Shown here in pieces: positions 2,503 through 49,051 of a stretch of 64,000 nt of DNA. This stretch comes from Cladosporium halotolerans. Taxonomy: Eukaryota. Location: assembly GCF_011745625.1 (NCBI RefSeq), contig NW_027191464.1, positions 310,001-374,000 on the forward strand, read 5' to 3'. The stretch's first letter is position 1. Every line of letters starts with the position of its first letter. Position numbers and translations under genes: made by a program. Under the pieces are notes generated by a model, which saw nothing but the letters and a program-made list of their open reading frames with translations, did not search any database and was not told where the DNA came from.

Positions 2503-3587
2503 CTTCGACGCAGCGTGATCCCTATTCCCAGGCAGGGAAGCGAGCCACGGCGTGGGGGTATGTCTCTCGCGTACCTCTCGTCTGAGCAAGGGCACTTCCG
2601 ACACGCATGCATGTGCGCGGTGGATCCAGGCCTTTGGGGGGGTTCTCCGTGATTACAGCACGCCTGGTCATGTGCCTTCGCGTGTCGATAGTGCGAAGGA
2701 TGTTATAATCTCGTTGGCGTGGTCAGCTGCTCGCTTGAGGTGTTGTGCATGTAGCAATTCATCAATGGAGGAGTGCCTGTGTGCGTGCCTTGCGGACGAT
2801 ACTTGTGTACCTTGTACAGGAGGGCAAGGGCGAGGGCGAAGTCACTCGCTAACGGAAAATGTTACATATTGCTGACTATAACCGCCTGCGATCCCACGTG
2901 CCGACGAACATGCATACATCAATTTATGAGTATTGTTGTTGTTGAGATCGGGACCAAGGAAAGGTACATTGCTGGCTACAACCACGTCACGTAAACCGAA
3001 CACCAATGTAATAATTTTTAACAATAGAGACGATGAGATCGCAAGGTTGATCAAGTACATTGCTGACTATACATTCTCGCCCTCCCACGTGTTCAGAGAC
3101 ACCCATTCATCGCTTGGTTCATTGTCGGTAATGTCGGGCACGAAATATAAACCTCGCCGCGCGATGCTTCCAGTACATTACATTACAGTACAGCGGAGGC
3201 AAACCGGGCCGGAATCGCACAGGACATGTAGCGCAAAGAGGCATGACATGGTGAACTCCTGCGAGACCCGACGGATGAATCCTCGCGTGAGATCACAGTA
3301 GCGACGGGAGGTGAGGTGGTTGGGACTCAGCAGAAGGGAACGTATCGAAGCACAGCACAGCACAGCGCAGGCACCAGCAACCTCAGGACCTAGCCAGGGT
3401 CGACCAAAATACGAGACGAGGCTCGGCTCGACACATCTCTCTCTCTCACAGCGCAGACTGGCCCGACAAATCTGATCGAGACCGACCCATCAAGAAAGGC
3501 GAAAGCGCGCACCTCTCCCAACTTCACTTCGAAGATGTAAAAAGTAAAGAACTTCAAAGACCCTTAAAAAAAAAGTATCTGGAGTTA

Positions 3588-3835
3588 TCTCTCCCTCCCT
3601 CCCTCCCTCCCTCTCACTCTCTCTCTCCCACGCACTCGCGCTCTCTAGTCAACTAGTAAAAAGCCAAAAAGAGAAAAGAAAAAAAAAGAAAAAGCAGTAG
3701 AAAAGTAGAAGGAAGAAACAACGCCTGGACTGGGGGGTGGAGAAGGGGGTGGGGAGAAGGGTGGCACTATGGCAAAATGCAGGAGGACCCAGAAAACAAG
3801 AAAGAAAGGAAGGAAGGAAGGAAGGGAAGGAAGCG
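3588..3835. repeat. Low-complexity (CCCT)n, (CT)n, A-rich and (GGAA)n tracts downstream of RHO1
   Basis: ccctccctccct at ~3593-3613, A/G-rich runs at 3658-3720, ggaaggaagg at ~3808-3832. Confidence 0.75.
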
Positions 3836-4322
3836 GGACGAGAAAGCTGGGGAGATCCCGCGAGGATGACAACCGTTGAGTGGATGCTCTCACCGAGCCA
3901 ACGTGGCTCATCGATTCTCCGCCAGATCCGCTCTTGTCTTGTCTCGTCTCTGCTTTCCATGCTTGAGCTCGCGCGATGGGCACGTATCGCGGTGACGCTT
4001 CCTTCTTGATCGGTTCGAACGTGCTTGTGGTTGCTGATTTTTTTGGGAGGTATTTTCTTTTCTTCTTCTAAAAGTCTCTCCTGCAATTTGGTTTTCATGA
4101 CCACCATCATCCCGCCTTCCGACTACAGTCCGGAGATCGTCAAGATTAGTTTGCGTGGAGGGTTTGTCTCGCTGATGCCGGGTGGTGTGTGTTTGTGTGT
4201 CAAGGGTGCTTGTGCATGTCGAGAGGAGCCGATGGGTGATTTCGAGAAGAGAGCGCGGCTGCTGAGACGTCGTGTCGCTGGAACGGAAACTTGGTAGATG
4301 TCGATTATGGAGGTGGGTAAGT

Positions 4323-5257
4323 TTACAGAATCATGCACTTGGACTTCTTCTTGCCCTTCCGGGTAAGCAGAGCGGCGCGCGTGGCATGCTCGAACACCTC
4401 CCTGACGCCCTCGTTGGTCTTGGCGGAGCACTCGAGGTACTTGCCGGCGCCGATCTTCTTGCGCACATCCTCGGCCTGTGGTGGTGCTGTCAGCATGTGG
4501 CTCTCGTTCGTGTTTCGAGGCCGTGACGAAGCCGCCTCGATGGTGTCCATACCTGTTCGGGAGTGACGGGCTTCTGGGAGGTCTTGTGCAGCTCTTCAAT
4601 CGTCTTCTGGTCGTATCTCAGATCCTTCTTGCAGCCGACGAGGATAATGGGCAGGCCCGAGCAGAAGTGCAGGACCTCGGAAATCCACTGTGATGAGGCG
4701 GGCGTATCAGTACATGTCCGCCAAGCAGGTGTGTTCCACAGCGTGCGGTGAGCACGTGAGAGGGCAGCATACCTTCTCCTGGACGTTGTCCAACGAATCC
4801 GGCGAGTCGACGGCGAAACAGATGAGGATGACATGTGAGTCGGGGTAGGAGAGGGGTCTGAGACGGTCGTAGTCTTCCTGACCGGCGGTATCCCAGAGCG
4901 CTAGTTCAACATGCTTGCCATCCACCTCGACATCGGCGACGTAGTTCTCGAAGACGGTGGGGACGTAGACCTGTGCGGGCGGAGGGTTAGTGCGGCTGCT
5001 CGGGTCGTGTAGAGATGCGTGCCGGCGGTGTTTGATGGTGTTGACGCGGGTGCGTCGGCGGTGGTTGATGCGCGATGGTGCGGATAGGGGATGGAGGGCG
5101 ACGACGAACCTCAGGGAAGGTACCCTTGGAGAAGACACTGATGCCTTGTCAGCGGTGACGAGTGGAGGAGCGGTGCGATCGAGACTTACATGAGCAGACA
5201 GGTCTTGCCGCAGGCACCGTCACCGACAATGACCAACTTGCGACGGATCTCGGCCAT
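4323..5257 (-). CDS. RHO1: Rho1 small GTPase, 5 coding exons (5257-5190, 5137-5110, 4970-4773, 4687-4553, 4475-4323)
   Basis: [80 protein letters not shown], polybasic tail plus CAAX (KKKSKCMIL*). Four GT-AG introns join the frame. Confidence 0.97.
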
Positions 5258-7230: not shown

Positions 7231-7615
7231 TAGGAGGGAGAATCATCGGTGAGGATCGCGGGCTGAGGGGAGGGTGGAAGGTGTGATAATCAGTTGCTCT
7301 GCGTGTTCCAACGCAGCGGGCTATGAGTTGGCTATTCCAAAGCCAAAGCCGCACTCGTCTCGCGGAGGACAGGAGGACCCCTGGGCCTACTTGTCCAATT
7401 GCATTCTGAGCATGTTGCGCTGCTGCAGTTCGCAACCGTCGAGAAGGGCACCCTTGCTCGCTTCCTTGCGGCGCCGGGCAGTCGCCAGGCACGAATCGGG
7501 CTTCGATCAGACCTGTAAAGGGACACGCTCTCGAGAGCCAAACCCTACCACTACGGTCAAGAACACAGCACCCTCACCCTCACCCATATCCACTCCACCC
7601 AGCTTTCCTCCCTCC

Positions 7616-9746
7616 CTAAAACTTCCCCTGCACCCCCACGCCCTCCTCAACAACCCTCCCCTCCCCTCCTCCCACCTCCCCCGGCTCCCTCCCCCTGATC
7701 TCAACCGGCACAAACGGGTCCCAAAACCGCGGCAGCACGAACCCGACCGCCACGAACAGCATGACCAGGTGCGCGACGGCGAACCCCACGATCTGCAGCG
7801 GGTCGTGGCGCGCGGCGCTGAAGCTCGGGTACGCGAAGCTGAGGATGATGGCGAGGATGGGCACGGAGATGTAGCGGAGCAGCGGGCCCCAGATGGAGGG
7901 GATGCGCCAGTTGCTGCCGGTCGCGACGGTGGCGTTGAGGTCGGTGGAGAGCGCGTGGCCCTGTTTGGGAGGGAGGGAGTTAGCTTGAGGGGGTTTTCTT
8001 CTTCTTCTTCTTCTTCTTCTTCTTCTTCTTCGTTGGATCGTTTTTGTTTTGAAGGGAGGGAGGGAGGGAGGGAGGGAGGCTTACTTGGTAGAAGAGGAGG
8101 TAGTAGAGTTTTTGCAGCAGGGCGTTGCGGGCGAAGAAGTGGGGCGTGTAGGTGTGAGTGTAGCGCGGGGATTTCGCGAGGAGGGCGGCGGCCGCGAGGC
8201 CGACGAAGAAGATGCCGAAGGCTACGCCGGCGCCGGCGCCAGGGTGGACGGAGTGGCCGATTGCGACGCCGAGGATGAGCGAGAGCAGGTAGCAGGCGGT
8301 CCAGAGGGCGAAGGATGGCAGGCCGACGGCGGCGATCACGTCTTTGTACCGGTAGACCATCGTCGCGCCGAGGAACTCGCACATGACGGTCCAGACGAGG
8401 GAGAAGTTGTTGAGCCAGGTGTCGAAGCCGTCGAGGAGGTAGTAGCCGAACTCGGTGCAGAAGACGAGCGAGATGAGGAAGGAGACGACGACAGCGGCTG
8501 TCACGACTATGGAGCGGTTCCAGTGGCGGCCGAAGTTGCTGTCGCAGATCAGGGAGATGAAGGTGTCGAGGAGGGCGAAGGCGGAGCTGACGCCGAGGAT
8601 CATGAGGGTGAGGAAGAAGATGGCGCTCCAGAATTGAGCTGCTGGCATCTGCGCGGTGCCTTCGGGGAGAGTCAGGAAGGCGATGTCGAAGCTGCCCAGG
8701 CGGTTGCCTGCTGCGGCGTCTGCGACGGGGTCGAAGACGTCGGTGCCCAGGTAGCCGATGACGCCAAAGACGGCGAGGCCGCAGAGGATCTCGATCAGCG
8801 AGTTGGAGCAGCAGATGATAAGGGCGTCTTGCACGGCGTTCTGGAACTTGTTGTTGTATGAGGCGTAGTTGGTGAAGTAGCCCATGCCCAGCCCAATGCT
8901 GAAGAAGATCTGTCCGCAAGCATCCTGCCAGATCTGGCCATCGGCGAGAACGTCGGAACGCCATGTTGCCCAGGCATAGCGGATGCCTCTCGTGGCGTTG
9001 GGGAGCGACACTCCGCGGCCAACGAGCACGAGGACCATGATGATGGGAAAGCCCATGGTGAAGTACACCACCCTGCCGGTCTGGCCGATGCCTCTCCAGA
9101 TGCACAGCCATACGAGGAACCATGTGAAGGCACACCAACCGACGGTCTCGCCAACCATACCGGTGCTGGCGTAGCTCGTGTAGCTCTGGACGCTGCCTCC
9201 CGAAATCTCGCCCGCGGTGCGTTCTCCATTCCGGATAACGCTGTCCATGTAGAAGTCTTGACTGTTGCCTTCCCAAGGAAGTGGACTTTTGAAAGAGTGG
9301 CGGAAGTAAGCCATGACCCATGCGAGGATCGGAACATAATAGACGACGACCATGTAGCCGTTGTAGACCAAGCTGAACCCGACGCCTTTCAGCCTCTTGT
9401 GCATGTGGTCGTAAGCAATGGCCGGCCCGCCGCGAAAGGCCTGGCCAATGGATATCTCAAGAGTCAATCCGGGGATGCCGAGCATGAAGAACGCTATGAA
9501 ATATGGAATGAACCATTGGAGGCCGAAGTTGTTGTAGACTTGCGAAGGCTATGTTGGGTCAGTCGACATCTAGACGGGCTGCACGACAATGGATCCGCAT
9601 ACGTATCGTAGAATGTTTCCCAGACCAACGCAGCCGCCCATGGCAGCCAGAATGAACGACGCGCGGGAAGGCCACTGATCGCGTCCATCGTCAGCCTTCT
9701 TCGCCTTCGAGCTGAAGAGCATTCGAAAGAAATTCTTGATCGCCAT
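7616..9746 (-). CDS. Sodium:neurotransmitter symporter (SNF/SLC6) family transporter, 3 exons
   Basis: N-terminal RDQWPSRASFILAAMGGCVGLGNILRY|PSQVYNNFG, plus WQDACGQIFFSIGLGMGYFTNYASYN and IAFLTLPE, and many hydrophobic segments. Introns at ~9602-9549 and ~8084-7961; the last exon ends in ORF 7616-7864. Confidence 0.9.
7996..8078. repeat. (TTC)12 and (AGGG)6 microsatellites inside intron 2 of the SNF transporter
   Basis: Read directly at 7996-8031 and 8053-8078. They explain the spurious poly-K/E/S runs in the ORF track. Confidence 0.9.
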
Positions 9747-26487: not shown

Positions 26488-28388
26488 CTAGTTCTGCCAA
26501 TTACCAGAAACCGTCACCGCCGTCGCACATGAGCGCGGGACGGTGTACGAACGGTCCGGATCCGCTTCCCAAGTCGCCTGCCCGCTGTTGCTGACGACGA
26601 GATACTTGTACTTGAACGAGGTGCCCGCCGGAAGAGTGACCGTACCTTCCCAAGCTGGGTTCTGCGCAGTGTAGCCCGTCGCCGAGAGCTCCACAGAATT
26701 CGCGGCGCTCCAGGAGCCAAGCTGAGAGATGGATCCGGACAGCTTCAGGGTGTCGCCGAAGTTGGTCGCCTTCCTACCGATGAACGTCACTGCTACAGAT
26801 GTCGCGGTCGCACACGGCGCGTTGGATGTGGTTGTCCGGGTAGAGGTGACGAGGGTGGAGGTGGAGGCGCCGGCGCAGATGCCGCTGCCGGAGAGGGCCG
26901 ATGTTGGATAGAAGACCTGCGGCAGTCCGTCCGTGATGCTGATGGCAAGGTTTCCGTTGGAGTCGGCGGCGTATGCCTTGCAAGTCAGGATCTCCATCAC
27001 GGACTGCCCGGACGTGAAGCCAGTTGCGGATGAGGAGAGTGTGAGCGATGCAGCGCCATTGGCGCCTCTGTTGTTGTGCACTGAAACGACAGACCCCTTG
27101 CGCATGACGATCGTCCTCGAGTCGGGAGAGGAGACCTGGGCCTTGTAGGACAGGTACGACGTATCCTTTTGCTTTGCCCAGTTCCGGAGGCCGTTTACCT
27201 GCTTGATGAAAGTGTAGAACGTCGATGTAGTCGAGTAACCAGAAGTCCACAGAGCTTCACGATCTGCTGGTACTTCGCCTCCTCTGAAGAATTGTTCTTG
27301 TCCTTGATAGATGATTGGGATGCCGTCCTGCAGTATGGTAAAAGCAATTGCGTTCTTGGTCAATGAGACGTCCGAAGTGTAGCTTGGGAATCTCGGTTGA
27401 TCATGATTTTCAAGAAAGGAACCAAGCAAAGTCGTATCGGCGCATGTAGTTCTCATCTGGTTGACCCCGTTGACCAAGTTCGAAATGCTCCCGCCCGTCG
27501 ACTGGAAAGCCTGAGTCATGGTATAGTACGTCGGATAGTTCAGAACGCCTGGCATGTAGTTCTGGTAAGGACAAACATACTTGGGATCACCGTTGAGAAC
27601 CTCGCCGACTGCATAGATACCGCCAGCAGCTTGCAGGAAGGGTTCCCAGAAGCCTGTGTTGACGTGCTTCGCGGTGTCGATGCGCAGGCCATCGATGGTG
27701 TAGTTCTTCACAAGCTGCGAGACCCAGGAGTTGAAGATGTCTTGAACTGCCGTATCCTCAGTCCTCAAATCCGGGAGTGGAACGTTGTTGCTACCAAGCC
27801 AACACTGTTTGACGCTCGTATCATCTGCATCATTGATGGTGCAGTAAGGGTGGAAGTACGACTGCTTGTTGAAGGGAGTGAAGATACTGTAGTCAACGCA
27901 CGTGGGGCAGCCGGGGTAGCCCATATGGTTGGGTGCGATGTCTACCATCAGGTACATGCCTCTGGCATGCAGAGCTGATGATAGCTTGATCAGATCTGCA
28001 GCAGCTCCGAAGTTGGTATTGACCTCGTAGATGTTCGTCGCCCAGTAACCGTGGTATGAATCGCCGTCATCTGTCGACTGCGCGAAATTCTGCACCACCG
28101 GTGATATCCAGACCTGGTATCATCAGCTAGAGTCTGTTAATATAAGTTTAGAGTACGCACTGCAGAGAAACCCATGTTCTGGATGTAGTCGAGCTTGTTG
28201 ATCAGACCCTGCCATGTGCCGCCACAGTATCGATTCACATCGCAGAAGGCACTCGTAGAGCCATCGGTTCGGGCGAAACGATCAGTGATAACCTGGTAGA
28301 TTGACTGAGATCGCCATTGCGCTGGGCTAAGGGCCGAAACGCAAACGCAAATCGCGAGGAGGAAAGTCTGGTAGATGAGAAACATCAT
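26488..28388 (-). CDS. Secreted alpha-amylase GH13_1 with linker and C-terminal CBM20 starch-binding domain, 2 exons
   Basis: [21 protein letters not shown]; conserved regions [29 protein letters not shown]20 ([19 protein letters not shown]...[12 protein letters not shown]). Intron at ~28159-28114. Confidence 0.95.
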
Positions 28389-36570: not shown

Positions 36571-39422
36571 TTTTGATGGAACGCTTTGCGACGAAGAGGT
36601 TGAGAATCTGGTGGCGCACGTGAGTGTCTTTTCAAATGGATGGTTTTCGTTCGCTAGTGTGGAGTTGACCATGGGAAGCATAAGCCAAGAGGACTGCAGC
36701 CATCTAAAGTTGCTTGCTGGTCTTTTAATGCGTTGCGATGCTTCACTTCACTTCCGGCATGGTTCACGATGAGTAACGCGCCGAGGCGGCGGGGAACGTC
36801 GTCCCGTCTCGTAAGGTTTACAGGTACGAGCCGAGAAGTCTTGTCACTCTTGCCTTGGGAGACTGCACGTGGTCACGCATGTGCTTCTGGATTCACTGTG
36901 AGACGGCAAAAGGTGCTGTTCACCTATTTTGGACGAACACAGTGGTGCTGTCAAGCAGGAGAAGTGGTGTGGTGCGGTACGGGCATGTCGAAGCGGAGCG
37001 GTCGATCAGCGGGGAAGGTTCGACAGGACTTGCACCTTGCGCAGCTGGGATTGCGCAACCTTGCTGATGGCCGATGCAGAGCTCTGCTGTTGAGACGCTG
37101 ACGACGATGAGAAGTAATCATGAGCGATACGATACAGTTGCGGAGTTCTTGCGACTTCGCGAGGCCGATGGCAAGCCTCTATGGATGTGGTGATATGTGA
37201 CTTGGGCAGCATCATGTGTAGGCTGAGAGAGAATTATTTGCTGCAGGTTGGCGGCCATTCCATGTGATTTCGACCAGCATAAGGCCTGCTCGCCAGGAGA
37301 AAGTCTCGGGCAGAAGTCCATGGTGAGCACTTTCTTCTTCAATTAAGCAGGGAGTTTCTGTATAGCGGAGATATATCCGTACAGAAGCTGACACTATTGA
37401 AAAGCGTTGTCGAGTGTGAAGAACATGACTGGCCCGAGCTACAAAGCGCGAAGATGTCGCGAGTCGTGCCCATCCAGCGCCGCGGCGCGTTCAAGAGATC
37501 ACTGCAGGGTTAAGAGCTGTGGGTCTGGAGTCTCTCGGGCCGCAGAAAGCGAGATGACAATCGCCAAATCTACGTTGTGGAAGTGTCAACAGCCGCTTCC
37601 TATGCGCTTGGTGGTGTGTGAACACGGTGGGTTTAGTGAGGAAGATGATATTTGGCCGACGGTTGCCACATTTATTTTCAGATGCGTGAATTCGCCGGCC
37701 AATAATTCGACACTACTTTGGCAAAATCTTGGCCTTTCGTCCTGTGCGCCGTCTTGTTGATATTGCCAGGCACGTGCGCTCGCTCTTCATCTAGCCTAGT
37801 TGGCTACTTTCTGCTGTAGTCTCAAGGGGCATGGAATTCTGGTGGAGCGTCCAAGGAATTTTAGGGCGGCCTCGACGCCACGCCCTCAGTGCGTCGCGAC
37901 TCGACTTGCCGTGAACAACAAGCCCAGACGGCTTGGAGCGAAGAGAAGGCCCAAGTCAATGCGAATGATGAGCCGCAGAGGCTTGAATTGCGGGCTCGCA
38001 TTCATATGCTCGCATCGGCTCATAGAACCTACTGTAAGCGCAAGACCGCCAGGAACTCCAACGTGTCTTCAACATTTTGCGTGGCCAGGACAACTGGTGA
38101 ACACAGATTTCATCACCCCGCACACCGGTATGCTGGCTGCAGATGTTTGAGTGCACAACAGACGCCGTGACGCACCTCGATCTGCGCTCTGTTGCAGAGC
38201 GTTGAGAAGCCGTCCGTGCTACAGCCATCATTTCTACTATGCCCAAGGCTTCGAGATGATTGCGGATTCTCTATAGAAGCACACGAATGGCAAGTAATAA
38301 TCGAAGTGCCCAGCGGCGCGGCTCTCCGGTAGGGGCCAGCAGCCAACCGCAAAGCTACAAACACAGTGGCGATGGTGGTTGGTGCAGCGCGACGGACGCG
38401 CGCGCGGTCTCTCGGCGCGTGGCGGTGACCGCCCGCCAATGCTCTCGGCAGGAGAAAGGCGAGAAACGGGAGCTGCGCTCCCCAGACGACTCCCTGCTGG
38501 AATTGCACTGCGGAAAACACGAGGGGCCAAGCCGCCGCAGGACAGGGTTGGACAGGCTCGACAGGACACCTGCAGCAGCCAGTGCGGGAGTGGTGGAGTC
38601 GTGCAGATGACTCGCAGCTCGAGGATCGTCCACCGCGCGCGCGCCTGCACAAGACGAGCGGCACATCGCGCACGACGAGAGCCGCGGGGGATGCTCGGTG
38701 CGCGCGCGCAACAGCGTGCAGCGGGCGGCGTGTGCCTGGCCACAGGCGCGAGAATGGGCAGGCTGGCTCGTGAGCACCGCCTCGAAATGGAACACGAGCG
38801 TTGGCATTTGCGCCTGGTCGATCTTGCATTGGCAGTCGGCCGGCTCGGCGCGAGCGCGACCGTCGTCCGGAGCGCGTCTGGGCAGTCTCCATCTCACCTT
38901 GCCCCTGACATGGTCCCCTGATCCCTGCGCACTCGTGCGGACATGTCAAACGCCTGGCACAAAGCGGACAGGACGCTCAGAAACAACAGCCAACCCTGCG
39001 ACGCCTGGCTCGAGCGCGACTGAAGCAGATCATGGGGCACCGCGTCATCCTAAGCGAGCACGCCAAACTCACGGCCGCCATGGCTGGCTGGCCCCGGAGA
39101 CTGGCAAGACTTGGCCATCCAGGCGAGGCGTGACCGTTGCGAGACTCTGGGCCGCATCGCCGCTAAGTGGGCCGGAGATTAACCCATCCAGCCCATCACA
39201 GCGCCCCAAGCCCTTCAGCGTACCGGCTCCTGCTAGCTGTCCGCGTCCCGGGATAATCATAGCCCACCTGCGGCTATCTCCTAGGCTTCCCCTCGCCGCG
39301 AAGGGACGTCCGAACAAAACGCCAACGGGTCCCGTTGTCTCCGGGGGTACCGTCACTTGATACCACACTCTCTCTTCCCGTCCTGCAGCTGTCGCTGCTA
39401 TCCGTCTGTCGTTCCAGCAAAC

Positions 39423-41284
39423 ATGTTTTCCTTATTGTTGTCGGTTTCTTTTGCGCTCCTTTCATTATTCTCTTCCGCCGTCCATGCAGTCGATGCGGAC
39501 GGCTGGCGCCATCGCTCTATTTACCAGATCTTGACCGACCGATTCGCGATCAGAGAGGGACAGGAAGTGAAGCCATGCGATCCGGGAATGGGTATCCACT
39601 GCGGTGGATCGTGGAAAGGCATTACAGAGAAGCTCGATTATATCCAAGGCATGGACTTCGACGCGATCTGGATCTCGCCGATTGTGTCGCAAATGCCCAA
39701 CTGGACCGGTGACGGCGAGGCCTACCCCGGCTACTGGCAGAACAACCTCTACGAGATCAACCCGGCCTACGGATCCGAGGAGGAGCTCGTGGAGCTGATT
39801 GACGAGGTGCACAAGCGAGGAATGCTTCTGATGCTTGACATTGTCGTCAATCACATGGTTGGACCTAAGCAACAGGACGGCGAGTTCGACTATTCGCTCA
39901 TGCGACCATTCAACGAAAAGAAATACTTCCACGATTATTGCCCCTCTGGATACAGCGATAACGACCTGGACAACCTGCAGAATTGTTGGCTGGGTAGTTT
40001 GCAGGCGCCTTTGGCGGATTTGAACACGGAGAGCCAGGAAGTTCGGGATATGCTTGGACTCTGGATCAAGAACCAAGTGTGGAAATATGGCATCGACGGC
40101 CTGCGTATCGACGCAGCGATCAACGTACCAGCCGAGTTCTTCACCTCATTTATGGAGTCGGCTGGCATCTTCGCAACTTCGGAGGTCTACACGCAGCAGG
40201 AGAAGATTTCCTGCTCGTACCAGGAGACCATTGGAAGTGTCCTCAACTACCCTCTTTACTGGCCTTTGACAAGGGCATTCCAAAGCACCGAGGGCAACTT
40301 CGGCGAGCTTGCTGGGATGGTTGAGCAAATCGCCAGCGAGTGCACCGACCCTACTGTCCTGGGCAACTTCGCAGAGGTGCGCATTTCGAACGAACACAAG
40401 TAGAGATTGATGACTGACGTTTTCCCTAGAACCACGATGTTGCCCGCTTCAGGAACCACACCGCGGACATGTCTCGCGCAGAGAACATCCTCGCCTACCT
40501 TCTCACACATGACGGCATTCCTGTTGTCCTTTATGGCCAGGAGCAGCACCTTGGTGGTGATGTCGAGCCGTACTACAACCGTCAGGCGCTCTGGGAGTCG
40601 GAATACGATGAGAACGCCAACCTTTACACGCTTGCGAGCAAGCTGAACCGATTCCGCCGCCACCTCGGCCGTTCCTACGAAGGTCACCTCAAGACGCTCA
40701 GCACCGCGATCAAGACTGAAACCAACGCTATTGCCTGGGCTAAGGGCGCTGACGGCGATCCCAAGCAAATTACGGTCTTCTCCAACAAAGGATCCGACGC
40801 GGATGACTTCCAGGTCGAACTCTGCGACAACCACGGCTACTCCGCCGGTGACGAGATTTACGACGTCGTCGCGTGCAAGTCCGTCTCGGTCGAGTCGAAC
40901 GGCTGCATCAACGCGTGGGTGACCGACGGCCACCCAGTCGTGCTGTTCAAGAAGTCCGAACTCACTGGATCCACCCTTTGCGATATCCCAGGCGAGGACA
41001 AGGTTGCCCTGACCTCCATGGCGGTCATCTCCACAACCTGGACCTCCGATGTGAGCGGCAAGCCTAGTGTATTCCACTCCGCCACAACGATGCCGTGGGC
41101 CGACGCCCCGTCATCGATTACCGCTACTTCCACCCCGGGTGCCACTGGCACATCCGAGCCTGCATCGACAGGCGGAGTAAGTTCCACCCGCCCCGAATCA
41201 ATCAGCTTATTATCACTGGCTACAATCCCGGCCTTGATCCTCTCCGTCAGTCTAGCCATCAGCTTAGAGCGGTTTCTTCGATGA
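39423..41284 (+). CDS. GH13_1 alpha-amylase-like protein with probable GPI anchor (AgtA/Aah-type), 2 exons
   Basis: Signal peptide, WRHRSIYQILTDRFA, DIVVNH, GLRIDAAINV, TSEVY, FAE|NHD (intron ~40377-40429), S/T-rich region and hydrophobic C-terminal tail. Confidence 0.88.
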
Positions 41285-43140
41285 GGACCTGGCCGCGGGC
41301 ACTTGTCTTTCGAGCGCGCATTGTTTATTGCTCTGTACAAGAAAAAAAGCATAATAGAGCCTGTGATGATATACGAGAACACGATACCCAAACTACTAAA
41401 CACCTGCATCTGCACCCTGTCCTCACCTCGCCCGCGTGCCAAGTTAGCGGAAGCTAACGTTTAATTCTTAATCTGTAGAAGAAGCTGCGCAAGCGCCACG
41501 CCCACCATCACCACCACAACCACGGTTCGCACGGGTTGTAGTACGGCCGCACCCGCAACCGCATCCCGCGAGCCTATACATGGCAACCCACCACTCCGCG
41601 AACGTGGAGTCGAGAGGCCCGCCCACGGCAGGGACCCAACCGCCACCACACCAAGCATTCGAGCGAATTCCGGCCAACCAGGGCCGGCGCACGATTCTTT
41701 ACAGCATTTCACAGCACAGCATCTGCGTGACTCGACACACATACCCGTTTTTCCTTTCTGATCAAGCATTTGCATGGCATCCGTCCGGGGGTCTTTTTGT
41801 TTGCCGCGCGGCGCTCAATTCGGGCGCCCGCGCGCGCCGTTTTCGTTGTTTCTTACCTTATTGCCGGATGTGGCGTCAAGCCACTGTACGACTATTGGCA
41901 GCTTTCGTTCCGGTTCCTTTCGATTCTCACGCGACCTTGCGTTCTAGCAACAGCGTTCTTTTCATTTCTTTCCCTACTTCGTTCACGCGAACCGCCACGG
42001 CGTGCTCGTATTTTTCTTGGTTTCGGGGAGAGGGCAGAGACATTGGCATCATCTCGCTTGGGCGAGTCTCGGGGCTGGGCAAACAGAGCGAGGCTGTGTA
42101 CATACCAAGCCTCCGAATCAAACGGGTCCGTCTTGGCTTCGGGCTCGGGATCTCCAACGCATGGCAACGCATGCGCGCACTTTCGCTTGCGGGCGGGGCT
42201 CCGGGGCGTGCATACTCTCATCAACAAACACCGTGACTTTGTCTGTCTAGACGATCGTGCCTTTCAGTCGAGCTCTCCATGACATCAACTCCCATCCCTC
42301 GCGCGCTCAACGTAGAACCTGAACCGCGACTCGCCCCGCCAAGCCCGGCCTCGGCCGCCGGTGTACCGCGGTTGGATGTCTTTGCGGGCGAGAGAGAAAG
42401 AGAGGGAAGGTTTGGGCTTAATTTAGCTTTATTACTCTTTTTTCACGACTCCGGAGTGCCCGTGTTCCCCATGGTTCGCCGGCTGTCAAGCACCCCGCGG
42501 GAAGCGTTTGGGCCGCTAACTCGGGCTGGTGGTGGCGACGGGAATTCGATGGGGTGTTCGTGGCTCCGACTCCCCGTTGGCGGCCTGTTGATGGGGAGGA
42601 AGGTGGATTCGGAATTTCGGTGAGAGGAAGGCGTCTTTTTGATCTTCGATGCTTGCTACGGGTGAGTGAGACTAGTGCGCATGATGGACGGCTTGGGTTA
42701 TGCATGTCTCAGTGGGAGCGGCTTGAGGCTCGACGCGTGCTGGAGGCTTCATTGATGACTTGGCGGAGTGGAAGGTTCGAAGCTCCCCAAGAGGGGAGGT
42801 TGAGCTGTGGTGCCTGAGGACCGCGTTGCGTCGACTTCACCTTATCGGTCTTCAGGTCTCTAAGATTGCTTTGGCGGTCTTTTCGAACCCTTTTGGCAAT
42901 CGGCTGGCGTCGCTACTAAGGCGAAGCTGAGGATAATCCATTGCCTCATTAATGCCTTGCGAGACCATCTCTATTGGGGTGAAACACGCTGGAGTCCCGT
43001 CTCTGAGGATGCGATCATGGACGAAGACCGACCATGCTTCTTCTCGTTCGGTCAGCCTGGGCTCGTGCAGAATCAATGAAGAACTATGGAAGGACTAACA
43101 CTATCGTGGGTCAAAGTCGTTACATACTTGCAGCATGCCG

Positions 43141-44521
43141 TCAAGTCGCGATCTCGACAGTCTGGGGAGTGAAATTGCTGATGAACACAACCAGCACAGC
43201 GCAGTACGCTGCCGAGGCTGCGAACAGCTCTTGCCTTGTTGCCCTGGTCAAGCTCGACATAGCCATGCCGAATATAAGCGTGAAGACGACGAGGATACCT
43301 ATGGCCTCGAAGGGAGTCGCCTTACTTGCATCTGACATCTCGTACAAGGCCACCACCGGAAGCACCAACAGGACAAAAATTATAGCTGTGATGATGATGT
43401 TCACAAGCTTGTCCACTCGCACCGGGTCATAATAACGCACGAAATCTTCGGATGTCTTGTCCTCGAGCTCTTTGGTCACGAAGACGTACTGGGTTTCAAA
43501 TTAGTTCCATGGTGTTCAGAAACATAAGAGAGAAACCCACCTGAATGATGTTTTTCTCCCAACCACACCGATGAAAGAACCTATTGGTTCGGCCGAGCAT
43601 GCGCTCGACGAGATTGTCGAAAGCAGCGCCCTCTCGACCTTTTCGCAGAGTTACGATGTCTTCTTTTCGCTTGGCAAACTCTTGTTCCTGCGCGACTAAC
43701 GGAGCTTTGCTGTACATCCAATTCGAAAGGCTTCGCCAATCGCTGTCGGCAGGTCGCTGAAGGGCGCTCATTTCGCGTGCTTTCAACAGCATCTCATCTG
43801 TGCCTAGTAAGAGAAGCTCATTCCAAGGCAACACGAACCTGGTACGGCTTACCATACTCGAGTAGCTTCCGCTTCAGATCCGCCAGCACCTGCAGCCTGT
43901 TTCTTTGCCCATCACAATCTGCCGGAAGTTCTTCATTGCGGATCTCGGAATCGTCAAGAGCCTTGGACTTCAGTCTCTCCCCGTTCCCGTCTTCTAGATC
44001 CCATTTATCTAGGGTCTCGAGTTCTCGCTCAAGAACCTCCAGGTCGTACTGGAGCGCGAGTATCACACGGGCGTGCAAATACCCGAAGCCACGATACTGC
44101 ATAAAGTTTCGATCGGAGGATAAAAAGGTGGCTAGCCTCGGATATCCTTGAGGAGCATCCTCCACTTCGAACCAACACTGAATCAGCATATGCTCCGATT
44201 ACTCAATTAGTCGTTAGAGCGTCGCTCTGCTACAAACTCACACTTTCGGGTGATTGTCTGGTATCGCTTTTCGGACTCTTGAGGAGCGCATTTCTCATTC
44301 AAAGAGTGGGCCTGGGATCCCGCCTTGCCGTTTTTCAAAAGCTGTCGATACCATGGCAATCGCACTTTTCGATCTATGGTCAGAAATTGGTCTTTCAGCT
44401 TTGGTCAAATGGTTACCGTGCCCGGGGTACCTTCATTGGATTGTGATTCGAGCTTGCCCAGCGTACTATCGTCGCTTCTTAAGGTTGTTGGCGATTGCGC
44501 ATTATCTTGGAATTGGTCCAT
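43141..44521 (-). CDS. DUF6594-like protein with C-terminal transmembrane helices, ~379 aa, 5 exons (44521-44431, 44373-44242, 44164-43853, 43797-43541, 43488-43141)
   Basis: EDAPQGYPRLATFLSSDRNFMQYRGFGYLHARVILALQYDLEVLERELETLD; coiled segment; C-terminal TRATRQELFAASAAYCAVLVVFI. Four GT-AG introns give one uninterrupted 1140-nt frame. Confidence 0.8.
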
Positions 44522-45710
44522 CTCGCCGAAGATGACAACATACACAAGGATATCTGGGAAGGTCAATCCTCACTATCGTCGAATGCAAAGAGTCGACAGA
44601 GGCATGGGAAACGGCCCCCAATTGTACTTTACCTTCCTTCAGCCTTGCAAACCATCCGAAACGAGGTGACTGCGCCCGAGGCTGAGGCTTTCACCGGGAA
44701 TCGTGCTGCATCTCTCATAGGCTGACGCTATCATGCAACTATCTGCTGAGCTCGCTTGCTAAGAACCACTTACGGTCTCCATCCGCATACACGGCGCCAT
44801 CGTCTCGTTCCAACTGATACTCCCATTTTGCAAGCCCAAAATTGAACTCCATCTGAACTATCTTGAAGTTTTTCCTGACCCTTCGAGAGCCCGACTTCAC
44901 ACTAATCCCCACGGTATTTCCCAGCTTGAACTCGCTATCAGGCTACACAAGAAGCTCAGTCTCGCCCGGCAATGTCGCGTCACCCGTGTGGCTCACCCTT
45001 GTGTAGTTGCCCCTCCCCGCTTGGGCCTTGAAACCACTACCCTCCTCGGCTTCCTCACGAGAAGGCTGTGACCGTCAACGATTCGTCTCTGCGGCGCCCT
45101 GGTAAGACTTACTGGCGTCAAAGACATGCCGCAGATACGAGGGAGCCAGTTTGCTGGAACACTAGTGTACACAGACCAATTGTTTGTGTTGCTTCGATCG
45201 CGCAGTCGTTGGAAGTGCGCGGCTAGCGGTGCTCCTGAGGCAGAGCGGACGGGGCTGTGTTGGTTTTAAGGCCAGAAAGGCGTACTCAAAAGCCCACGGC
45301 TGAGCATCGCCTGACCAGGCTTATGCATATCTTAATATATGGCGCTGGCACCATCGACCCGGCTTGCGCCATAAGGACTCCCGTCCCGTGAAGCTGAAGC
45401 TGCAGTGAGATTGATTGGCGCTGCAAGCGACGTTTTCGGCTTCGCAGCCTCGTGTGCCGCATATGCAGGCAACCTGCTGGTGTTAGTGCGACTGATCAAG
45501 ATAAAGCATGTGACGGGGCGTAAACATGTTGTGGGGGCGAAGCAGCTTGCATTAGGCGAAGCAATGCGTTCCCTGGTCTGATCATGCCTTATCTTAAACA
45601 AGGCCGCCCATTGTCTGTGTGCTGGCAATGGAAAACTACGTTCTGGCAACCCGAAACCAGCTATTCCGACCATCAGTATTGGCACTCGTGATAAGAGAAC
45701 CGTCTACATC

Positions 45711-47072
45711 ATGGAGGCCTCGCACGTAAAACAACTCATCACCAAGGCGGGCCGCAGTGTGCAAACCCAAGATCAGAACCTGCATGAACGGAATGATGCC
45801 ATGCGCCATCATTGGGAGAAAGCAGTCTGTCAAGAGCTGGGCGTTCCCGACCGCTACTCAAAAGTAGCTGCATTGATGATCCGTTGGGACAATGAATTTG
45901 ACAAAGATCTGAGATGCGAGACAGAGGTGAGCGATCGAAGCCATTAGTTGAATGCCTATATCGGCTGACCGCCGCAATCCCAGACAAATAAACTCGAGAG
46001 CGTGTTCCGTGAGAATTACGGCTTCGAGACGGAGACTGTTCTGCTCAAGTGTCACCAGAAGAAGCCTGAGACGCAGCTGCTCCGAGATGTCACAGCATTT
46101 GCCTATGAGCACGATGGCCACCACCGTACGACCTTGCTCATAGTATATTACAGTGGACACGGTTATCTTGATTCAGTCAACGGGCAACAAGAACTTCACA
46201 TATCGGGGTACGCATCGGAAAGTCCTCGTGGAGCTATCATGTCTGACGCGTTTGCTAGCAATGAAGATCCGGCCACCGAAGATGGCGAAACCACACATGT
46301 TCCAATCGCATGTTGGAAAAGCATAGACGATCACCTCCACAGTCTCGACGCGGACGTCCTCGTGATCATGGACTGCTGCTTTGCGAGCAAGTTGCACAAA
46401 AGTGACGGCCAGCACTCGCGAACCTTCGAAGTCCTTGCGGCCACCGACAACATCACGCCCAGCCCAGGTCCTTTGTCATATACAAATGCATTGATCGATA
46501 TACTAAATAGCGAGTTCAAGCTCTACCAATCCAGAAGAGAGCATTCGTTCGATACCATTCACCTCCAAGATCGGCTCTGCAAACGACTCAAAACCTATTC
46601 ACCTTCCTTGATCAACCGCCTTCAAAGTAGAATTGCTCGACACATCCGATTGGCGCCGCTGGAGCCTCCATCAACCTCGGAAAAGCCCCACAAGCGAGTC
46701 GATCGATCGATTGCCACCCTTCGGATTGAAATCGACTTCGGAAGAAACAAGAGCCTGAGCCAGAAGGAAGCCACTGATCTAGGCAAAGCCCTTGCCGCCG
46801 GTGCCAAAAATGCAAAGCTCAATATCACAGGGCTCAACTGGATTGAGTTTGTGCCGAGGATCCCCACGGTGCACAAGTCGTGCAGTGTGACGATCGGCGC
46901 CGCAGTGCTTGTGCAAATGCAAAGGGCGATGCGCAGGAGAGCACAGCGGTTATCGCGGAGGAAGCGATCGCACAACGAGGCAAGCAACCGAGACTCTCGC
47001 AAGCGTCAGCGCACGACATCATCGGATCAGGTGGACACGCCTCCACCCTCGAGTCCCGACAACAATCCCTGA
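45711..47072 (+). CDS. Caspase-like (clan CD, peptidase C14-related) His-Cys protein, ~434 aa, 2 exons
   Basis: KVAALMIRW, LESVFRENYGFET, LLIVYYSGHG (His 46158), DVLVIMDCCFAS (Cys 46374), FEVLAAT, SYTNALI. Intron 45927-45983 (GTGAGC..GCTGAC..CAG) keeps the frame. Confidence 0.78.
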
Positions 47073-47196
47073 AAACCACGTTGGTCAATCACCCCGTCCG
47101 AGGGTGTAAGAGAAATTTCGTGCGATTTTATACAAGGCGGATAGACGTACATAGAGGAATAGGTGACCAAGATTCGCTGCTTTGCCTCAAAGGCAT

Positions 47197-49051
47197 TTAC
47201 CACAGGAACCTCTGCACTCTCCCTGGTTCTTGCTCCCACTCAAACCCTCTGTTCAAGAAACCCCACATGGTGACGGCGTTCACGCCGAGGAACCACGCTG
47301 TCTCAAGCCAGAGTCTCTTGTCGTGCTGATCCCACAGCTTCATCTTCCAGCTCGTGGCGAGACGAGTGTTCCCTTGCAGCTGGGTGGGATGCGAGAGTGG
47401 CAGGTGCAGACGGAAGAATATCCAGGGCAAGATGAAATACCTTGGCTCAACGAGCGGCGCTGTGACGAGCGTGAGAGTGGTCGTCATGAGCCAGATGAAG
47501 AGGAAGGAAGTGTTGGCGGACTGCGTCGTGTCTGGGAGAGGAAGCAGGCGACGCGGGGCGCCTCTGGACGCGGTTTTGGCATCCATTTCGCGCGGCGGCG
47601 TGGGATTAGTGGGACCGGAAGGCTTTGTCCGAGACTGAGGCGCCGAGCCAAGTGCTTGAATCGAAAGCCAGGCACAAGCGATGTAAGCTGGCGCCGCAGC
47701 GTAGCGAATCCACCAGTTTGCCCGCATTATGCGGAATACGTAAAAGACATAGTGGCGGTTGTCTGCAAGCGTGAATGGGTGGACGATGGTGTTAAAGCGG
47801 ACGGCAATGAGCGCGAAGAGGACGAAGAAGCACAGAACCAGGACGCGTGGAAGCAAATTCCGTCGCCTGAAGAGGAGAAAGTGCTCCAGGTGAGATATAA
47901 TGGGAAGCCGAGCAATGAGTGTCAAGGGAACACGGATGAGGTGCTGATAGGCGAAGGGCCAGCTGAAGAAGACCAGGAAAGGCCAGAGATACAAGATTTG
48001 TGGAGTGTGGATGGCGGGAACATGATTTGACTTGTCGCCCAATACCACACTTCCATTGATGACCACGAAGGCGATGAAAGCAATCAGGAGTCCGATGAAT
48101 GGTTTCAGAATGCCCATGATGCTCAAAAGTCGTTTTGGCTGTGTGATCACTTTGACAGTGCAAGCAGCAATAGAAATGGCAGCCTTGAAGTAATCTGGAT
48201 ACTGTCGTTAGTGGATAGTTGCATTTCAAACCCTCGGACTTAACCCACCTTCCATTGATGCATCCCGGACAGGCGGATCATATAGGATATCCATCTTCCA
48301 AGAAGTCTTTGCGACATTGGTGAGAGTGTCACCAAACCCTTTGCTTCGATTATACATCGAGTCTTTGATCAATTCGTGACCTTGGTCAAGCTCTCTGAGA
48401 AATACCGCAGCAGCCGGGAATATGGCGACCCAGAAAATGTTTGTTTGACGGAATAGCAGGCTCACTAGACCTAGCGTGAATAAGCGTAGGTGCCACCAAA
48501 TCTGCTTCACTGCACTTTCGTCCGAGCAGATTAAAGAGTAGAAGCACAGCATGACCGACAATGTTGATGCCACGTCCGTATAGTAGAGCCCAGAAAAGAA
48601 GAACAACGGAGGTAGCAAGGCAACATTGAGAGCGCAATGTGAGGACAGCCAGCTGCCGTTCTGTTCGTCTTGACGATTGCCCATGCGATGGGTGAAGATT
48701 CTCTCCAGCAACCATGTTAAAGCAATGATGCAGACCAGATTCGTTGCCCGGATGCCCGCGACATCGCAACCGAAGATAGGTTTGAGGAAATAAGTCACCA
48801 TGTACAAGCCGGGAGGCGTCGTAATCTTTGGGTCCCAAGCTGCGAAATCATTGTTGCAATATTTCTGCGCTTGTGGAATATGGAAGACTTCGTCCTGCGG
48901 AAAGGAGAAGATGAGAATAGGCTCCTACCTGAAAGGTGTATGGGTAGGGACATACAAGATATGGCTCTGGCACCGTTTCCTGAACTGAGCGTGTCCACCA
49001 AGACAGCGGGAGGCCGAGCAGGATGTAGCTTCTTGAGATGAAGCTGGCCAT
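47197..49051 (-). CDS. ALG10: Dol-P-Glc alpha-1,2-glucosyltransferase Alg10/Die2, 3 exons
   Basis: VPEPYL|DEVFHIPQAQKYC, WDPKITTPPGLY, FFFSGLYYTDVAST, FRQTNIFW, NGSVVLGDKSNH, HPFTLADNRHYVFY, LVEPRYFILPW, QRFLW*. Confidence 0.95.

Follow-up and report, generated by a model that had tools for sequence, protein, structure and literature searches.

We analyzed a 64-kb window of the genome of Cladosporium halotolerans (contig NW_027191464.1, positions 310,001 to 374,000), the stop-to-stop open reading frames (ORFs) of which were scanned against Pfam. All coordinates below refer to this window. Three genes lie side by side in it. Gene D (43141..44521, minus strand) encodes a DUF6594 membrane protein of 379 amino acids (aa). 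Gene S (44739..45127, minus strand) is on the same strand directly upstream of D and encodes a small protein of 95 aa. Gene C (45711..47072, plus strand) encodes a putative cysteine protease of clan CD, similar to Peptidase_C14, of 417 aa. A divergent region of 583 bp separates the ATG of S from the ATG of C (45128..45710). The locus is very probably one representative of a three-gene module that filamentous ascomycetes have conserved. A previous reading of the window, made from its letters alone (hereafter the sequence-only reading), had described two divergent spliced genes around a gap of 1.19 kb. Both genes are there, and the ATG of D is 1189 bp away from that of C, but the gap is not empty, since a third spliced gene, S, lies inside it.

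The structure of the three genes could be compared with four public runs (X1, X2, X3, and X13) aligned to positions 43000-47200. Run X3 is recorded as RNA by guess only. Its contigs are 95-99% identical to the window, which indicates that X3 comes from a related strain. They contain six splice joints, all of the GT..AG type and all on the expected strand, and as a sign of expression such joints are found in C, S, and D alike. On the minus strand, they are at 44430-44374 and 44241-44165 (the first two introns of D), and at 45112-45066 and 44996-44943 (within the former gap). On the plus strand, they are at 45927-45983 and 46208-46258 (the introns of C). Over the same positions, X13 (recorded as RNA), X1, and X2 gave unspliced contigs only. 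The divergent region, covered by X3 contigs 16 and 17, is mostly under transcript 5' ends, those of the minus strand extending up to 45536 and those of the plus strand starting from 45576.

The model of D relies on these joints, on the order of the matches to Pfam, and on the alignment with orthologues. Its five exons (44521-44431, 44373-44242, 44164-43853, 43797-43541, and 43488-43141, minus strand) run from an ATG at 44521 to a stop at 43141 and give a spliced coding sequence of 1140 nucleotides, or 379 aa, with a single terminal stop. Introns 1 and 2 are backed by the GT..AG joints of X3. We infer introns 3 (43852-43798) and 4 (43540-43489) from the Pfam order and from the clean alignment of the resulting protein with its orthologues; contig 13 of X3 crosses both of them unspliced. 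Three exon pieces match the DUF6594 profile (PF20237) in the order of the profile and over its full length: positions 1-86 (65.5 bits, E 8.8e-18), 86-155 (41.8 bits, E 1.5e-10), and 162-238 (80.7 bits, E 2e-22), for a cut-off of 30 bits. The length and the family that had been proposed for this protein are thus both correct. The exons of D are 100% identical to the NCBI protein P0164 (286 aa), named Cladosporium halotolerans. The model of P0164 begins at an internal Met, within the conserved N-terminal motif of the family, and places the acceptor of intron 3 at 6 nucleotides upstream, which adds two residues absent from the orthologues. An out-of-frame ATG is found 20 nucleotides upstream of the start of D. 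It opens an ORF of 20 codons (44541-44479, minus strand) that overlaps the start codon and could damp the translation of D if the transcript starts upstream of it.

Gene S was revealed by contig 16 of X3, which spans the supposed gap on the minus strand from 45536 to 44431 and has two GT..AG introns. The exons of S are 45127-45113, 45065-44997, and 44942-44739 (minus strand), both introns are joints of X3, and the frame of 95 aa stays open once these introns (45112-45066 and 44996-44943) are removed. This contig also covers exon 1 of D, which is no proof of a single transcript. Gene C has three exons (45711-45926, 45984-46207, and 46259-47072, plus strand), with an ATG at 45711, a stop at 47072, and both introns seen as joints of X3, resulting in a coding sequence of 1254 nucleotides and 417 aa. 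The second intron (46208-46258) has GT..AG ends, is 51 nucleotides long, and is in frame. The stretch that it would encode is a gap in the annotated homologues and corresponds to a low-confidence loop in the structural model of C. A length of about 434 aa had been proposed for the protease, and this has to be corrected to 417 aa, while its YYSGHG and MDCC motifs stand. No named protein identical to C was returned, the sole match at 100% coming from the Logan assemblies. Hence, C may be unannotated in the public record.

We studied the linkage of these genes in metagenomic contigs of the Joint Genome Institute (JGI), which were scanned with a pattern for the protease only. This resulted in 305 matching stretches; 217 of them passed confirmation, and 80 were retained. 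Linkage was tested from the side of C, i.e., loci were recruited by the protease alone and D was then looked for with a hidden Markov model (HMM) made from 116 D orthologues, searched against six-frame ORFs. We found D in 45 of the 80 loci. Where the flank upstream of the protease match reached 2300 bp, D was present in 38 of 41 loci, against 7 of the 39 where it was shorter. Dereplication at a nucleotide identity of at least 95% left 63 groups, and D was identified in 30 of the 33 groups with enough upstream flank. When one representative was taken per group, 34 D genes were within 3.5 kb of the protease (254,905 bp of sequence) and 2 were beyond (232,573 bp), one of the latter being a tandem second copy. 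The linkage between D and C is real, and the enrichment of DUF6594 genes beside this protease family, which the sequence-only reading had put forward as a check in other genomes, is what we observe. Some of these loci can be placed by the identity of their D protein to known ones, which reaches 99% (L025) and 95% (L041 and L070) with Alternaria proteins and 94% (L052) with a Cenococcum protein. The gene that follows C in the window is ALG10 (47197-48924), as had been noticed before. It was found in none of the 80 loci; the flank downstream reaches 3 kb or more in 23 groups. All-against-all comparison of the ORFs of 32 representative loci of at least 6 kb revealed no other recurrent family besides C, D, S, and the antisense frames of these.

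The same loci show that S is part of the unit. We seeded an HMM with the S of the window and iterated it on the six-frame ORFs of the window and of all the fetched loci. It retrieved 43 ORF pieces (42 from the loci plus the one of the window), each beside D or, where the contig is short, as far from the protease as expected. S occupies the same strand as D and lies directly upstream of it in 30 of the 35 dereplicated groups that have D, at a median distance of 542 bp. Among the other five, D is cut by the end of the contig in four, and one, L059, lacks S. The module, which had been proposed to consist of two genes, has therefore three.

The groups with D show four gene orders: 25 groups have the divergent one of the window, D precedes C in 6 and follows it in 2, and the remaining 2 are convergent. 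One of the six groups with D then C has a second, weak D match downstream. In L058 and L060, tandem DUF6594 genes (3390-4658 and 7541-8882, plus strand) are upstream of a single protease gene, and S matches only ahead of the D copy nearer the protease. The arrangement of the window, where C diverges from S and D across a short shared region, and its occurrence in 25 of the 35 groups with D could be explained if the genes were co-regulated neighbours, held together by a shared regulatory region or a chromatin domain and having no direct biochemical relation. However, the linkage persists through the four orders, including the tandem and convergent ones, which have no shared divergent promoter. 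In addition, the flanking genes are not kept, and there are gene models where S is fused to either of its partners (see below). We thus consider such mere co-regulation very unlikely.

Named genomes show similar proximity. In Hortaea werneckii, the locus tags of C and D are one or two apart (KC332_g7252/g7254, KC358_g16081/g16083, and D0859_07535/07534), and they are adjacent or nearly so in Vermiconidia calcicola (LTR37_000728/000726) and Oleoguttula mirabilis (LTR36_009082/009081). The single tag found between C and D in some genomes fits S. In Pseudocercospora eumusae, both genes are on a contig of 77,021 bp, while in Lojkania and Zopfia the longest contigs carrying C and D are equal in size (190,384 bp and 1,123,553 bp, respectively).

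The two large genes have also diversified together. The p-distances of C and D are correlated (Mantel r 0.87 over 30 pairs, i.e., the 36 group representatives minus 6 with low coverage), a value reached by 0 of 2000 permutations. The FastTree trees of the two genes have the same major clades, and the non-divergent arrangements are in a deep second group of both. The trees thus agree at the level of the major clades, and their congruence had been named as a test by the sequence-only reading. Their agreement shows a long co-inheritance and is not by itself evidence of adaptive co-evolution, and the loci are not independent origins. Altogether, C, S, and D have been kept together and have diversified together over deep divergence and across changes of gene order, while the genes flanking them have changed.

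We searched for fusions between the three families with the HMM of S. At the C-terminus of the protease, S is found in models from Geoglossum umbratile (P0134, residues 423-479, E 9.6e-11) and Glutinoglossum americanum (P0061, residues 384-437, E 1e-6), so that C and S are also present in gene models of Geoglossomycetes. In the N-terminal region of D, it is found in models from Zasmidium cellare (P0178) and Hortaea (D0865_05550, P0192), both with an E-value of about 5e-5. If these fusions are real, S moves between C and D, which is the behaviour expected of an adaptor.

The large exon ORF of C (45984-47069) matches Peptidase_C14 (PF00656) with 27.5 bits, for a cut-off of 21.4 (E 3.1e-6). The two residues of the catalytic dyad are in the motifs YYSGHG (His) and MDCC (Cys). 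In an alignment of 140 rows, counting the sequences with a residue in the column, the His is conserved in 97 of 101 (His59), the Cys in 137 of 140 (Cys132), and the Asp that precedes it in 140 of 140 (Asp130), with residues numbered as in the translation of the large exon. An AlphaFold2 model of this exon, built with the same alignment and not including the first strand, encoded by exon 1, has a pLDDT (predicted local distance difference test) of 82.9 and a pTM (predicted template modelling score) of 0.74. Foldseek gave 16 matches in the PDB at E <= 1e-3, and those listed are C14 proteases: the metacaspase of Candida glabrata (4.5e-5), Yca1, MALT1, caspase-9, and CED-3. The best alignment by VIA-align is with metacaspase-4 of Arabidopsis (6w8r_A, Z 14.8, root-mean-square deviation 3.5 A, 186 residues aligned), followed at Z 14.7-13.2 by metacaspase-9, caspases-3, -8, and -9, MALT1, legumain, Yca1, and CED-3. 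The 25 chains with Z >= 8 all have folds of clan CD, and the protease-like domains of Raptor and c-FLIP are among them. The model thus predicts a caspase (caspase-hemoglobinase) fold, in agreement with what had been named beforehand as a test of the protease assignment. The scores of metacaspases (14.8 and 14.7), caspases and MALT1 (14.2), and legumain (14.0) differ by less than 1 Z and are to be read as ties, which places C in clan CD but no nearer to metacaspases than to caspases. Like the proteases of family C14 (metacaspases, caspases, and MALT1), C has the His after the third strand, in GHG, and the Cys in D-x-C. Unlike them, it has a family-specific C-terminal domain followed by a basic tail containing Pro, and its sequence similarity to the family is marginal (27.5 bits in Pfam, and a best E-value of 0.93 among the PDB sequence profiles, with metacaspase-4). 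We take C to be a cysteine protease of clan CD, probably cytosolic, in which the His/Cys dyad is intact.

The family of C includes 636 cluster representatives at E <= 1e-3. We scanned for domains the 99 of 148 new representatives that have at least 300 aa. No repeats and no NOD module were found in these 99, and Peptidase_C14 is the only domain in the C of the window and in most of its homologues. A HET domain, characteristic of heterokaryon incompatibility proteins, is fused to the protease in P0067. It is also found in an ORF of 1481 aa of L071 (8164-12606, plus strand), which has a caspase-like domain near the N-terminus and a HET domain at residues 536-678 (E 6.5e-28). Some members of the family of C are thus fused to HET, which brings the family near known fungal death machinery, whereas the C of the window has no HET domain. 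The ORF of L071 has about 800 further residues with no Pfam match, and this locus has no DUF6594 gene.

About 55 aa of the protein S form a conserved domain, whose EYQL-like motif includes an invariant Tyr. S matched no Pfam family and has no sequence relative in the PDB, where the best profile score was an E-value of 1.8 (neuraminidase), nor in the ESM Atlas, where the best score (0.85, DUF3104) is below the level for a lead. We regard S as a small and probably soluble protein that belongs to no named family. Its sequence gives the impression, and only that, of an SH3- or Tudor-like barrel.

Relatives of D are numerous. A search with P0164 retrieved 225 proteins at E <= 1e-5, and the 120 of them that were listed are 45-63% identical to it, mostly 270-420 aa long, and belong to numerous Dothideomycetes as well as to some lichen-forming fungi. 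Conservation sets in shortly ahead of a GYP motif and is highest in the hairpin formed by the second and third transmembrane helices (TM2-TM3), which holds most of the 21 columns that are invariant in 116 sequences. To describe the fold, we modelled P0168 (63% identical, pLDDT 78.9), which is the closest orthologue of full length. The model has a disordered region (residues 1-60), a helical domain, and three long helices (278-309, 316-337, and 342-364), and is all helical except for two short strands. This is the layout that the sequence-only reading had anticipated, with a disordered N-terminus, a helical middle, and about three transmembrane helices. D is predicted to sit in the membrane constitutively, as a three-pass protein with a cytosolic helical domain ahead of its C-terminal transmembrane anchor. 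Foldseek gave nothing at E <= 1e-3 with this model (best 0.43), and gasdermins are absent from the fold-search lists, an absence that is weak evidence alone. The likeness of D to ESCRT-III and to alpha-pore-forming toxins amounts to helical hairpins with Z <= 8.5 in VIA-align, which is common for helical models, and we drew nothing from it. Similarly, there was no Pfam match of D to HeLo or to the four-helix bundle of MLKL, and the generic helical hairpins that were matched (Z <= 8.5) are below the meaningful level for helical models. The matches of D to PDB sequence profiles were discarded as chance matches to fusion-protein constructs.

These data bear on the proposal that the locus is an analogue of the gasdermins of fungi with their proteases. 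In this proposal, C clips the disordered N-terminal 90 aa or so of D, and the freed, membrane-active fragment kills the cell, in the course of regulated cell death or of defence. It would fit the linkage and co-diversification of C and D, the intact dyad of the protease, and the HET domain, associated with death, to which its family is fused in P0067 and in the ORF of L071, even if the latter locus lacks D. It would also fit a precedent: among 1,884 fungal gasdermin genes, 80% have a protease neighbour, and 19% one of CHAT type, according to Clave et al. 2022 (PMC8851545). On the other hand, the prediction for D is an all-helical protein that three transmembrane helices keep permanently inserted in the membrane, so that no release would be needed to reach the membrane. 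The exons of D have no Pfam match to gasdermins, only to DUF6594 and, weakly, to membrane proteins. The N-terminal segment that would be clipped varies freely and is poorly conserved among orthologues over about 75 aa. Furthermore, orthologues of this subfamily of D occur in many Dothideomycetes, D is among core genes here, and the proposal ignores S. We thus regard this analogy as unlikely. The comparison with the HET-Q1-like and HET-Q2-like clusters remains instructive. As here, these have (PMC8851545, PMC12881547) a protease gene, sometimes related to caspases, next to the gene of a membrane-acting protein, in a long-lasting association of two or three genes. In contrast with them, the partner here is DUF6594, a predicted all-helical three-pass protein instead of a soluble gasdermin, the protease is short and C14-like, lacking S8 or CHAT domains, repeats, and NOD module, and there is a small third partner, S. 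One detail of the precedent must be amended: het-Q1 and het-Q2 of Podospora had been cited as a clustered pair, but they are alternate alleles of one locus, and it is their homologues that cluster (PMC8851545).

The tail of C and the architecture of D suggest another alternative, where proteolysis has a signalling role and does not lead to death: D would tether S, C, or its own cytosolic domain at a membrane, and the cut would free a soluble signal, e.g., towards the nucleus. The last 60 residues of the C family have a conserved stretch rich in Lys and Arg, followed by a motif with a nearly invariant Pro. This tail looks like a nuclear localisation signal, or like a site where an SH3-like partner, such as S, could dock, and the former resemblance would favour regulated release. 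So would the fact that most of D is a predicted cytosolic helical domain ahead of the transmembrane anchor, and the core-genome setting and strong conservation, which fit a conserved cellular function. Yet, neither DNA-binding nor any other signalling domains turned up in C, S, or D, and conservation in D is highest in the TM2-TM3 hairpin rather than in the cytosolic domain, which suggests that the membrane part of D does more than anchor. Regulated release of a soluble signal is, in our view, quite improbable.

The explanation that we favour, with a probability of about 0.55, is that of a three-gene module where S docks C on D and a cut in D or S switches the transmembrane hairpin. The products of the three genes would act on one another. 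S would be the adaptor that docks the protease C onto the membrane protein D, a role suggested by its fusion to D in some lineages and to C in others. The cut made by C would fall in the cytosolic part of D or in S, and it would switch the activity of the highly conserved TM2-TM3 hairpin of D. The output might be the permeabilisation of the membrane and death, or a non-lethal signal. The different parts of this explanation do not have the same standing. It is very probable that C, S, and D form a real, co-selected module. That they act directly on one another as protease, adaptor, and membrane protein falls a little short of an even chance, and an output in cell death or defence is rather doubtful. 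A more specific version, in which this subfamily of D would consist of membrane executioners or channels gated by the protease, with S bringing C and the cut opening or remodelling the TM2-TM3 hairpin, is similarly doubtful.

Several observations weigh against the favoured explanation. Three of the 33 adequately flanked groups lack D (L039, L069, and L071). The linkage is inherited, so that the many loci are not independent events. In some genomes, the protease homologue that was looked up, which may be a paralogue, is not near D: in Elasticomyces (LTR17_013196 and 020291), Rachicladosporium (B0A51_01346 and 03882), and Plenodomus biglobosus (J1614_001791 and 008115). In Corynespora, such a homologue, also possibly a paralogue, and D are on contigs of unequal size. 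The fusions are annotated gene models that could correspond to merged neighbours, and the S+D model of Hortaea omits a conserved motif of D. DUF6594 was found on none of the 99 representatives of the C family, and the one direct fusion of C and D, in Melanomma (P0014), was rejected, as it has unrelated sequence at its end and looks like a merged or degenerate gene model. Finally, the core-genome setting and the strong conservation of D fit a conserved cellular function equally well as an immune one.

DUF6594 is a large family in Pezizomycotina, and functionally coupled, conserved gene clusters are rarely met in fungi except for those of secondary metabolism and of allorecognition or immune loci. 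The conservation of the trio across Dothideomycetes points to a tightly coupled molecular machine. We searched the main text of papers in the literature and found none containing DUF6594, PF20237, or SNOG_12600; a search on caspase-like genes and transmembrane gene clusters in Pezizomycotina returned unrelated papers only. The module provides a first testable functional context for DUF6594 and for a divergent family of caspase-fold proteases, and brings to light an unnamed family of small proteins, S. If C gates D, the logic of caspases and gasdermins would extend to an unrelated effector. As there are three clonable genes and clear catalytic-site mutants, this gating is directly testable. Were D an executioner or a channel, the module would be a third fungal route to regulated death or immunity, beside those of gasdermin and protease and of HeLo and NLR, and would give a first function to one branch of DUF6594.

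The surroundings of the module in the window are made of ordinary core genes. Besides ALG10, they include Bud6/Aip3, PEX11, a homologue of ataxin-2, an ABC-F protein, PSF2, the mitochondrial L3, RAD52, a carboxypeptidase, GH67, and two alpha-amylases, and none of the large ORFs of the 64 kb is a HET or NLR gene. The alpha-amylases form a pair within 15 kb (26488-28119, minus strand, and 39285-41284, plus strand), and one of them has a CBM20 starch-binding domain. Just left of the 3' end of D, the contigs of X2 and X3 diverge from the window at 43003-43008, with loose ends of 255 letters. The long intergenic stretch beside the module thus differs structurally between related strains.

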